Positions 48,049-51,216 of a stretch of DNA of 54,435 nucleotides are shown in pieces (the stretch's first letter is position 1; each line of letters starts with the position of its first letter). Below the pieces are notes generated by a model. That model ran no database searches and was not told the DNA's origin. It saw only the letters and a list, made by a program, of their open reading frames with translations. Source of the stretch: Escherichia phage PhiR12_1; sequence record PV340549, one strand, 5' to 3'. The translations under genes were made by a program, and so were the position numbers.

Positions 48049-48174
48049 ATGAATGTGGAAAAAATAAGCAATCCGCAATGGGCAGATAAAGAGCACACTG
48101 CTGTCAATTGCATGGTGAAGTTTGAGCACATTGAGCAGGCGGTGCGTATTACCGTGAAGGAGATCGGTGAGTAA
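48049..48174 (+). pseudogene. 5' fragment of a tail-fibre-associated gene truncated by IS insertion
   Basis: ORF begins 17 nt after the stf stop (aggag RBS) and runs into the IS end, where the stop codon is supplied by IS sequence (gtgagTAA). Confidence 0.4.
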
Positions 48175-48227
48175 CATCGATGGAGATCGGTTCGTGTCAC
48201 TTTCACAGAACCGTTTTTAAATTACCT

Positions 48228-48977
48228 TCACTGATCTCCTTCGGTCAACGGAGATTGTATTTTCCGCATTGATTCTCCTTTAAGTTCGATCTTGATACTG
48301 CCATGAACCAGTCGATCTAGGATGGCATCCGCATGTGTGGAGTCTCCGATCATTTTGTACCAGTTTTCCACCGGCAACTGGCTCACTACGATGATTGAGC
48401 CTCGTTGGTACATCAGATCCACTATTTCCAGCAGGTCGCTACGCTGTTCTGATGAGAGAGGTTCCAGCCCCCAGTCATCCAGAAGCAGCAGATCGCTATT
48501 ATTCAGCCTGGTCAAAAGTTTGCTGTATCTTCCATCAGCATGCCCCTGATAGCACTGTTCCATCAGCGCTTTAAGGCGATAATAGTAGACCTTGTATCCC
48601 TGTCGGCAGGCATTATGACCAAGTGCACATGCCAGGAACGTTTTACCGCTGCCGGTGGCCCCGGTCAGTAAAATATTTTGTTTCAGGGTTAACCAGTTTC
48701 CCTGACTGAGTGAACGGATGAGGGCCCTGTCCAGCCCTCTATTGTTACGATAATCCAGCTTTGATAACTCAGCATTAAGTCTGAACCGTGCATGTTTGAT
48801 CAGACGCTCTGCCTTCCTGTTTTCACGGCAGGTTAGTTCTTCTGCTGTCAGTAATGACAGGCGTTCTTCGAAGCCCAGCTCCTGGTATGTGCCCGGCTGA
48901 GCAAGTTGCTTTTTAAGCGCATCACGGAAGCCGGTGAGTTTAAGTGCGGTCAGTTGTTCGTAAAGATGATTCATCAT
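48228..48977 (-). CDS. istB: IS21-family helper protein IstB (AAA+ ATPase)
   Basis: Walker A LLTGATGSGKTF, Walker B LLLLDDWG; DnaC-like IstB architecture. Confidence 0.9.
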   Translation of the reverse strand: MMNHLYEQLTALKLTGFRDALKKQLAQPGTYQELGFEERLSLLTAEELTCRENRKAERLIKHARFRLNAELSKLDYRNNRGLDRALIRSLSQGNWLTLKQNILLTGATGSGKTFLACALGHNACRQGYKVYYYRLKALMEQCYQGHADGRYSKLLTRLNNSDLLLLDDWGLEPLSSEQRSDLLEIVDLMYQRGSIIVVSQLPVENWYKMIGDSTHADAILDRLVHGSIKIELKGESMRKIQSPLTEGDQ

Positions 48978-48988
48978 TGGATCCCGTA

Positions 48989-50530
48989 TCAGTGGTAATA
49001 CTCACTGCCGCGTACGTTTTCGTGTTCCATCGTGGATAACAGATCTGGTTTTGGATCCTGAACAGGTTGTTTATCCAGACCTTTTTCCAGGATCGATTTA
49101 ATACCTGACAGACGCCATACCTTTGTTTTCAGAGCTCTTGCACATGCTGCATTAAGTCTGGCTTTACTGTATTTTTTATGAAGGTTCAGGAGTCCAAGGC
49201 AGAAGCGATAGCTTTGTTCCGGATGTGGACGAGAGTTCAGTATATGAAGCACATAACTATGAGTTTCACTGCCTATGTGCCCCGCCCATTCCAGAAGACG
49301 CTCTGGCGTCCAGGTGGCATGCTGTCGATGAGCTTCAGGCATGTGCTCGTTGCGGGTACTGTAGCCATAAGTACGCTTGCGCGGGTGCACAGCAACCTCC
49401 TGCCCCTGATTGAAGAGTCTTACCAGTTCTCCGGAGATCCATGCTTCCAGTTGCTGGCCTAACAGCGAACATGGAACCGAGTAGTAATGTTTGTCGATTT
49501 CCACGTGGTAATCGGCATGAACTCTGACTTTCTTCACCAGGGTGTAACTGTAACTGGCTTCAGGAAGAGGCTTCAGTGCGGGTTTATCAAGCTGGATGAA
49601 GAGTTCTGCACGTGAATAACCCAACTTCTGCATTATTTTGTTATTCAGTCTTTCCAGCAACTCCCGAATGCGCTGATTAAGCGATGCAAGGCTGTAGAAG
49701 ATCTCATGCCTGATTCGGGCCATGATCCAGCGTTCAACAACCTGAACGCCAACTTCAGCTTTGGCTTTATCTTTCGGTTTACGTGGCCGCGCAGGCAAAA
49801 CTGCGACATTATAATGCTCAAGCATCTGCTGGTAGGTAGGGTTAACGTCAGGATCATACTTACATGCCCTGGATGTGGCGCTTTTCAGATTGTCCGGAAC
49901 AACAAGTTCAGGAACGCCACCCAACCACTGGAAGCAGCGAACATGACTCATCACCCAGTCTTCAAGCTGCTGAGACCAGGTGGCCTCTGCCCATGTGTAA
50001 CTTGATGCCCCGAGAACAGCTACGATGACCTGAGCAGTTCTTATTTCTCCGGTCTCAGGGTCGGTAACGCCAACGGTAGGTCCACAGTAATCAACGAAAA
50101 GTTTTTCGCCAGCTTTATGTACCTGACGCATTGATGGTGAAGTGGTTTTGAGCCATTCACGGTACATCCGGCAGTAATGGTTATAGCTGTAAAAACCGCC
50201 TGGATTACGCTCACAGTATTCTTCCCAGAGTAGCTGCAGCGTCACGCATTTATTACGCAGTTCCCGGTGTACTGTAGCCCAGTCAGGCAGAGAGTGCTTC
50301 TTCATCTTAACCTGGGTCTGAAGGAACGCATGTTTTAGTTTTGTATCATCCCATCCTGTAGGTAAGGGCCACTGCTTTATGCCAAGTTGAGCCGCCCGAT
50401 TAGCATATCTGGATACAACGGAAGGGGAGATTGCAAGACTACGACCAATTTGTCGATGGCTGAGTCCAACACCGTATTTAAGCCTAAGAATTTCTTTAAG
50501 TTTTCTCATAGAAATTGGAACTGTTGGCAT
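48989..50530 (-). CDS. istA: IS21-family transposase IstA
   Basis: 513 aa; N-terminal HTH, central DDE-type integrase core; gene pair order istA-istB. Confidence 0.9.
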   Translation of the reverse strand: MPTVPISMRKLKEILRLKYGVGLSHRQIGRSLAISPSVVSRYANRAAQLGIKQWPLPTGWDDTKLKHAFLQTQVKMKKHSLPDWATVHRELRNKCVTLQLLWEEYCERNPGGFYSYNHYCRMYREWLKTTSPSMRQVHKAGEKLFVDYCGPTVGVTDPETGEIRTAQVIVAVLGASSYTWAEATWSQQLEDWVMSHVRCFQWLGGVPELVVPDNLKSATSRACKYDPDVNPTYQQMLEHYNVAVLPARPRKPKDKAKAEVGVQVVERWIMARIRHEIFYSLASLNQRIRELLERLNNKIMQKLGYSRAELFIQLDKPALKPLPEASYSYTLVKKVRVHADYHVEIDKHYYSVPCSLLGQQLEAWISGELVRLFNQGQEVAVHPRKRTYGYSTRNEHMPEAHRQHATWTPERLLEWAGHIGSETHSYVLHILNSRPHPEQSYRFCLGLLNLHKKYSKARLNAACARALKTKVWRLSGIKSILEKGLDKQPVQDPKPDLLSTMEHENVRGSEYYH

Positions 50531-50697
50531 AGGTATCCTTTACCGGAATGGCAAAAGATACAGATCAACACACCTGTGAAGTTCCAATAACATTGATGGA
50601 GATCACTGAATAACAAAATGAGTCAAAAGTGATCTCCATCGATGTTATTCAGCGATCTGTTCAAATGTTATTACCCGATCTCGATGGAAGTTATTGA

Positions 50698-51216
50698 GTG
50701 ATCTCCTTTCATGAAAATACGCAGGCGGTTCCTTTCACTGCAACAGCCAGCGATACCGAAGCATACGGGCGGGATATTTATGCCGCTTGTCTGAGAGGAG
50801 AGGCCGGTGAAATTGCAGAATATGTACAGCCATCCATCAGCCCGGAAAAAGCCAGAGAACTCAAAACCGCCGGGATCAACGCCTGGCGTAATGCGATGGA
50901 AGCGGCGAACTACACGTTTGAGCACAATGGGCGTAAATGGGACTACGGGAAGTCAACGCAGGCGCGTCTTGAGCCGTCAGTGGCTGCCGCGAAAGCAGGA
51001 ATACTGCCGGAGGGTTTTTTCTGGACGGATGCGGAGAATAACGACGTCCCGATGAGGGCTGGGGAGCTGATGGCACTCAGTGAGGCGGCGGAGAAGGCGA
51101 TGTTCACCAAAGGGATGGAAATTCATGTCAGACAGCGCACGATGAAAAAAGAGATTGAAGCGCTGGGTGATGCGGAAGCTATACTGGCGTATAAGGTCGG
51201 CATGGCTGACAGGTGA
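50698..51216 (+). CDS. hypothetical tail-fibre-associated protein (possible 3' part of IS-disrupted gene)
   Basis: ORF begins (GTG) inside the IS terminal-repeat zone; followed by hairpin terminator ggggcgctccagcccc; family not recognised. Confidence 0.4.
   Translation: MISFHENTQAVPFTATASDTEAYGRDIYAACLRGEAGEIAEYVQPSISPEKARELKTAGINAWRNAMEAANYTFEHNGRKWDYGKSTQARLEPSVAAAKAGILPEGFFWTDAENNDVPMRAGELMALSEAAEKAMFTKGMEIHVRQRTMKKEIEALGDAEAILAYKVGMADR

Follow-up and report, generated by a model that had tools for sequence, protein, structure and literature searches.

An ISEc12 insertion splits a putative DUF4376 tail fibre chaperone gene downstream of stf in the lambda-like Escherichia phage PhiR12_1

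Among the closest described systems, gp27 of the Alteromonas phage V22, a DUF4376 protein, is essential for an active fibre (PMC7289586), and the gene lying downstream from the H-fibre in Campylobacter CJIE1 is needed for receptor binding (PMC7882524). The DUF4376 protein gp9 of the Alteromonas phage A5 is dispensable; the A5 fibre folds without a chaperone, whereas V22 needs its own (PMC10579305). Published experiments thus support a role of DUF4376 proteins as intermolecular chaperones of fibres, required for fibre folding or trimerisation in V22 and CJIE1 and not in A5. Here, a gene of the DUF4376 family was studied in Escherichia phage PhiR12_1 (sequence record PV340549), of which the whole stretch of 54,435 nucleotides analysed is named as the window, and this gene was found to be split directly after the side tail fibre gene stf by an insertion sequence (IS) of the IS21 family. 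Members of this family are defined by terminal inverted repeats ending 5'-TG...CA-3' together with multiple subterminal repeats. In phage lambda PaPa, stf carries a frameshift and the particles have no side tail fibres, yet the phage is fully viable and plates normally.

The interrupted locus in the window consists of the following elements.

46470-48032, plus strand: stf, side tail fibre gene, intact, 520 amino acids (aa), with the prophage tail-fibre domain PF08400 at the N-terminus (E = 2e-42), PF01391 (collagen) and PF03406 (Phage_fiber_2)
48049-48142, plus strand: 5' fragment of the putative DUF4376 chaperone gene, native codons 1-31 and the first base of codon 32, the reading frame continuing into the IS
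48138-48142, no strand: target duplication GGCGG, left copy, single-copy in uninterrupted homologues
48143-50723, minus strand: complete ISEc12, with four identical copies in E. coli
50724-50728, no strand: target duplication GGCGG, right copy, single-copy in uninterrupted homologues
50724-51216, plus strand: 3' fragment of the putative DUF4376 chaperone gene, PF14301 (E = 2e-17), no native start, frame open back to the GTG at 50698

The open reading frames (ORFs) lie as the initial annotation gave them, with stf at 46470-48032, a short ORF at 48049-48174 beginning 17 nt past the stf stop and a frame resuming at 50698-51216. The short ORF has 41 codons and a stop, and it had been taken to be halted on reaching the IS. 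The stop at 48172-48174 is indeed supplied by the IS, but the native part is confined to codons 1-32, of which codon 32 remains Val by coincidence, and the next nine codons (RITVKEIGE) before the TAA are already IS sequence. The 172-codon ORF on the other side starts from a GTG inside the IS and its first eight codons (VISFHENT) are IS-derived, while the 164 residues that follow are the equivalent of 30-193 in the uninterrupted protein.

The intact target gene was found to have 193 codons and the IS cuts it after codon 32. When the phage records were searched by tblastn with the 3' ORF, uninterrupted homologues of 192-195 aa were obtained directly downstream of a fibre gene in PhiR12_5, PhiR5_1, PhiR5_2 and the P-Eib phages of ECOR-9 (ORF-191), P-EibC among them. 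The DNA of these homologues reads ...CATTGAGCAGGCGGTTCCTTTCACT... across the junction, and the window from which the IS and one GGCGG are removed reads exactly CATTGAGCAGGCGGTTCCTTTCACT. The protein reconstructed in this way aligned end to end with the 192-195-aa proteins. Similarly, the reconstructed 1.2-kb empty site was uninterrupted in 28 of 5,426 complete E. coli genomes (91-98.6% identity), where the gene is annotated as 'DUF4376 domain-containing protein' and follows a tail-fibre gene. The IS thus splits one gene directly after stf, and the disruption is of the ordinary kind. The claim that the IS interrupts the gene following stf was borne out by the alignment to the uninterrupted homologues, which reads across the junction and defines a 5-bp duplication of GGCGG. 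The IS was present at the same site in none of the 5,426 genomes, and the junction sequence was not found in IMG/VR, JGI metagenome contigs or GTDB species genomes; as far as these collections reach, the junction is private to this phage lineage. Looking up the exact proteins of the two gene fragments and of Stf gave no record. A 170-aa 'partial' homologue (P0006) was considered as a second IS-interrupted copy and rejected, as its gene is merely cut by a contig end.

The limits of the IS were obtained by comparison with four other E. coli copies that have unrelated flanks. A complete IS21-family element of 2,581 bp occupies 48143-50723 on the minus strand, and its ends read TGCGTATT...AATACGCA with the termini 5'-TG...CA-3'. 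The base-by-base comparison gave 0 mismatches over 2,581 bp between the IS of the window and the four copies, whose genes are named 'IS21-like element ISEc12 family' in RefSeq, and the name ISEc12 is used here by this annotation of identical copies. The assignment to the IS21 family made earlier agrees with the istA and istB domains and with the RefSeq naming. The limits of 48143-50723 do not coincide with the ORF edges on the two sides. Similarly, repeats of the GGAGATC type are present at both ends as had been noticed (48159, 48182 and inverted at 48233 at one end; 50598, 50631, 50677 and 50700 at the other), but the boundaries that were thought ambiguous are not so, because the four copies with different flanks depart from the window exactly at 48143 and 50723. 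The internal parts of the element are given below.

48143-48246, no strand: istB-distal IS end, terminal inverted repeat with direct GGAGATC-containing repeats at 48159 and 48182 and an inverted one at 48233
48228-48977, minus strand: istB, AAA+ helper ATPase, PF01695 IstB_IS21 (E = 2e-67); the RefSeq start is one Met later, at 48974
48989-50530, minus strand: istA, 513-aa DDE transposase, rve (E = 3e-10), Mu-transpos_C_2 (E = 3e-16), N-terminal helix-turn-helix; WP_001298859.1
50586-50723, no strand: istA-proximal IS end, terminal inverted repeat with GGAGATC/GATCTC(C)-type repeats at 50598, 50631, 50677 and 50700

The istA and istB genes share a strand, are separated by 11 nt and are both intact. 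The element therefore shows an istA/istB pair, TG...CA inverted repeats with subterminal repeats, and a target duplication within the 4-8 bp of the IS21 family. The GGAGATC-type repeats are presumably the counterpart of the multiple subterminal transposase-binding repeats typical of this family. A second ISEc12 copy, which lies within mnmH in strain CRE1540, is flanked on either side by AACGC, and with GGCGG at the present site it indicates that ISEc12 makes 5-bp target duplications. The segment 48150-50715 was matched in 1,761 of the 5,426 complete E. coli genomes, mostly at ≥99% identity, the median being 3 places per genome, and the genes there carry the same ISEc12 family annotation. The copy in the window is complete and probably active. 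Because the IS is identical to other copies, its target duplication is intact and both ist genes are intact, the comparison points to a recent insertion into the prophage.

The same insertion was found in other phage records. Over 45835-54432, the window and Escherichia phage PhiR12_2 (PV340550; host field K-12 MG1655) agree at 100.000% identity, and both IS junctions are also present in PhiR12_2_star and PhiR12_4 (E. coli C in the host field), the GenBank records with the junctions being PV340550, PV340551 and PV340553. The window in its entirety is a close relative, mosaic in build, of the PhiR12 phage records. The literature yielded no publication on the PhiR12/PhiR5 phages (PV3405xx), and the infectivity on K-12 and E. 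coli C is taken here solely from the GenBank record titles and host fields. By these fields, the IS-bearing phage apparently still infects and the lesion appears not to disable the phage. We consider the chances evenly balanced that the IS-bearing genome has been packaged and passed on as an infectious temperate phage from a donor strain 'R12' (by the record names) into E. coli C and K-12, the insertion being tolerated in a dispensable side-tail-fibre chaperone module. The IS exceeding the capsid limit was considered as an argument and set aside as weak, the prophage having 54.4 kb against 51.9-53.7 kb in the related records, and the IS-free PhiR12_5 already 53.4 kb.

Two further observations were made in these records. 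Over 45835-54374, all 31 substitutions that separate PhiR12_4 and PhiR12_2_star from the window and PhiR12_2 fall within a 154-bp stretch (50962-51115) of the chaperone 3' fragment, and the replacing sequence is that of the PhiR5_1 allele, base for base. This has the look of a tract of gene conversion within a gene already disrupted. In addition, J is one ORF in the window (42712-46287, 1,191 codons from TTG) and one coding sequence in PhiR12_4, and it is annotated as two coding sequences in PhiR12_2 (40212-43076 and 43250-43741), the record with K-12 as host field. The K-I-J region of PhiR12_2 is ~92-98% identical to the window, which suggests that K-I-J is a recombinant host-range module.

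The product of the split gene was assigned from its domain, its relatives and its position. The 3' fragment matched PF14301 (DUF4376) with E = 1.8e-17 over its residues 52-162, and this was its sole Pfam match at E ≤ 0.01, the lambda/Mu Tfa family (Caudo_TAP) not being matched. The reconstructed protein matched PHROG 1141 of the category 'tail'. No significant PDB match was obtained for the target protein by either sequence search or Foldseek; the best Foldseek match in PDB, a prefoldin-like one with E = 0.3, was weak and disregarded. The Foldseek search against BFVD gave 39 matches with E ≤ 1e-3; DUF4376 is the annotation of many, and 'Phage tail assembly chaperone protein' that of one. By homology and position, the target gene would encode the assembly chaperone of the stf fibre. 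Its product is of two parts, a variable N-terminal domain of ~65 aa that is matched to the fibre tip and a conserved C-terminal DUF4376 domain.

When 27 E. coli homologues were aligned, the conserved columns clustered in the C-terminal ~120 residues, and the N-terminal ~65-100 residues were found to be of at least three unrelated modules. The neighbouring fibre genes were retrieved for representative homologues and the identities of fibre tips and chaperones were compared. The pairs of identities for fibre tip and chaperone N-module were 99/93, 93/94, 29/52, 30/24 and 20/14%, and the chaperone C-domain stayed at 68-100%. The same cassette of tip plus chaperone follows more than one kind of fibre shaft and recurs across phage types, including lambda-like, P2-like and SU10-adaptor contexts. 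That N-module identity tracks the tip while the C-domain stays conserved is what one would expect if the chaperone were cognate and its N-domain recognised the fibre tip. The AlphaFold2 model of the protein (pLDDT 92) has strands at residues 3-11, 18-25 and 32-37 and a helix at 43-54 in the N-domain, and the IS cut falls between the second and third of these beta-strands (18-25 and 32-37).

The expected effect of the insertion was considered on both products of the disrupted gene. The GTG at 50698 is preceded by a mere GGA-type Shine-Dalgarno sequence as against AGGAG at the native start, and no promoter-like site reading out of the IS toward the 3' fragment was found in the IS end examined. 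The disrupted gene is expected to yield a 41-aa stub and at most, in addition, a poorly initiated 172-aa fragment without half of the specificity domain. Because neither product should hold the whole N-domain, no outward promoter was found and the Shine-Dalgarno sequence at the GTG is weak, loss of the chaperone function is most likely, and Stf would then most likely not be matured in a host without a compatible chaperone. The suggestion made with the initial annotation, that maturation of the tail fibre is probably disabled, is thus a plausible one. Together, we propose that a recent transposition brought ISEc12 into a lambda-like prophage that is integrated at ssrA, where it landed in the 193-codon gene directly downstream of stf, that the side tail fibres would be left unmatured in a host unable to supply the chaperone in trans, and that infection by the particles would continue by way of the J tip fibre, as in lambda PaPa, which has no Stf. 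Infection through J would explain why IS-bearing genomes appear among the deposited phages, with K-12 and E. coli C given as hosts. We regard this account as a whole, from the recent ISEc12 insertion and the split chaperone gene to the unmatured Stf and the infection through J, as probable.

The structural part of this account was weighed against two other explanations. If the flanking ORFs were unrelated genes and the IS sat in intergenic DNA, no continuous gene would be expected across the site; this possibility, which had been raised with the initial annotation, was looked for and excluded, since homologues continuous across the junction exist in phages and in the 28 E. coli genomes and the reconstructed protein follows the 192-195-aa proteins from end to end, and its probability is close to nil. 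The IS could also be an artefact of assembly, in which a repeat was collapsed or misplaced into the prophage, and the multicopy nature of ISEc12 in E. coli, with its 1,761 of 5,426 complete genomes and median of 3 places per genome, would favour such an error. The perfect 5-bp target duplication, the exact reconstruction of the empty site and the recurrence of the junctions in three phage records deposited separately speak against it, and we consider an artefact highly improbable.

The functional part is open to more doubt, and several points weigh against a loss of Stf maturation. The insertion would be phenotypically silent if Stf matured through a chaperone-independent tip, through the 172-aa fragment initiated at GTG 50698 on the Q-antiterminated late transcript, or through the chaperone of a co-resident prophage. 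For the first of these routes there is a precedent in the DUF4376 family, the Alteromonas A5 fibre folding without its DUF4376 chaperone (PMC10579305). For the second, the 3' fragment retains the whole DUF4376 domain, the GTG is in frame with residues 30-193, and low-level translation is possible. For the third, PhiR12_5, whose name points to the same donor strain, has an intact chaperone with an N-module 93% identical and a fibre tip 99% identical, and could complement in trans; the Stf tip has the same 99% identity to the PhiR5_1 fibre. Against a silent insertion, the cut takes away, in the model, two N-terminal beta-strands out of three in the very domain that co-varies with the tip, and the weak Shine-Dalgarno sequence before the GTG and the lack of a detectable outward promoter argue against the fragment being made in quantity. 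The tfa genes of the K-12 cryptic prophages are, we assume, of the Caudo_TAP type and would not complement in trans. On balance, a silent insertion seems unlikely, and loss of chaperone function remains the reading we favour.

The remainder of the window was examined as the context of the insertion. Each of the lambda-like core genes has its full length (int, cI, O, P, Q, terminase, portal, capsid, tail and the 1,191-codon J), in agreement with the earlier statement that the prophage is otherwise intact. A 16-bp direct repeat, GCGGGAGTTGAACCCG, is present at 1-16 and 54398-54413 as the attachment core, and the right flank is what we take to be the 3' end of ssrA (tmRNA). With the repeat at both ends and the ssrA 3' end, the window therefore represents a whole prophage of ~54.4 kb, from attL to attR, at ssrA. 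ARAGORN called no gene, as the last part of ssrA alone is present. Just inside the prophage ends, a 20-nt exact direct repeat, CACGTGCATTTTACGTGCAT, was found at 74-93 and 54275-54294, and the two copies are possibly arm-type sites of the integrase or IHF-flanked ones.

Downstream of the split gene, 52012-53091 on the plus strand codes for a protein of 359 aa that carries a YadA membrane anchor. The layout matches that of the Eib genes for immunoglobulin binding in the P-Eib phages of ECOR-9, and next come an ORF-156-like gene (53150-53653, plus strand) and a DinI-family gene (53868-54116, minus strand). A 2.1-kb insert between the tail genes L and K (39063-41206), present in PhiR12_4 and not in PhiR12_2, contains a Clp-protease-like gene (39120-39656, minus strand) and one of the BRO-N/P22 antirepressor type (40218-41132). 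Downstream of Q, 19156-21138 on the plus strand encodes 660 aa in which the domains DUF1737, SASA (sialate O-acetylesterase) and DUF6645 are present; the protein presumably resembles the NanS-p esterases of Stx and other lambdoid prophages. Two minus-strand genes lie between N and cI (8159-8842 and 9694-10719), one having an Nmad5 (nucleotide-modification-associated) domain and the other encoding 341 aa with no Pfam match and labelled 'T2SS GspM containing' in phage records. Because their position resembles that of rexAB in lambda, the pair may be exclusion or defence genes.

What happened here is that an IS disrupted an accessory gene of a prophage, a routine event and no surprise to those who know the field. 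For annotation, the 'hypothetical proteins' flanking the transposase in the window and in PV340550, PV340551 and PV340553 can be read as the halves of one DUF4376 chaperone gene. As a natural knockout, the IS-bearing phages, compared with the uninterrupted PhiR12_5 and PhiR5_1, would bear on whether Stf assembly needs the E. coli DUF4376 subfamily. If the host fields are true, the records would be a small documented case of an intact IS carried in an infectious phage genome. If the genome has indeed been packaged and passed on, an intact and probably active element of the IS21 family would have moved naturally from strain to strain within a viable phage.

In comparison with the known systems, the element itself is ISEc12 in its istA-istB layout, TG...CA ends, subterminal repeats, 5-bp target duplication and 2,581 of 2,581 bp, and it differs in the insertion site only. 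The disrupted gene shares with those of the DUF4376 chaperones V22 gp27, A5 gp9 and CJIE1 the C-terminal PF14301, the position directly downstream of the fibre gene, the length of ~190-240 aa and an N-terminal part that varies with the fibre. The likeness to the V22, A5 and CJIE1 proteins is, however, one of shared domain, without close sequence identity to the E. coli protein, and the phage here is a lambda-like siphovirus with a collagen-repeat Stf. The gene resembles lambda tfa in its position just after stf and in the same presumed role, but its product lies outside the lambda/Mu Tfa Pfam family. As in lambda PaPa, a lambdoid phage without side tail fibres would stay viable, although the lesion is a frameshift in stf there and an IS in the chaperone gene here. 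The P-Eib prophages of ECOR-9 carry ORF-191C/D/E, ~86% identical to the 3' fragment and followed by YadA-anchor Eib-type and ORF-156-like genes as in the window, and they differ in that their ORF-191 genes are uninterrupted.

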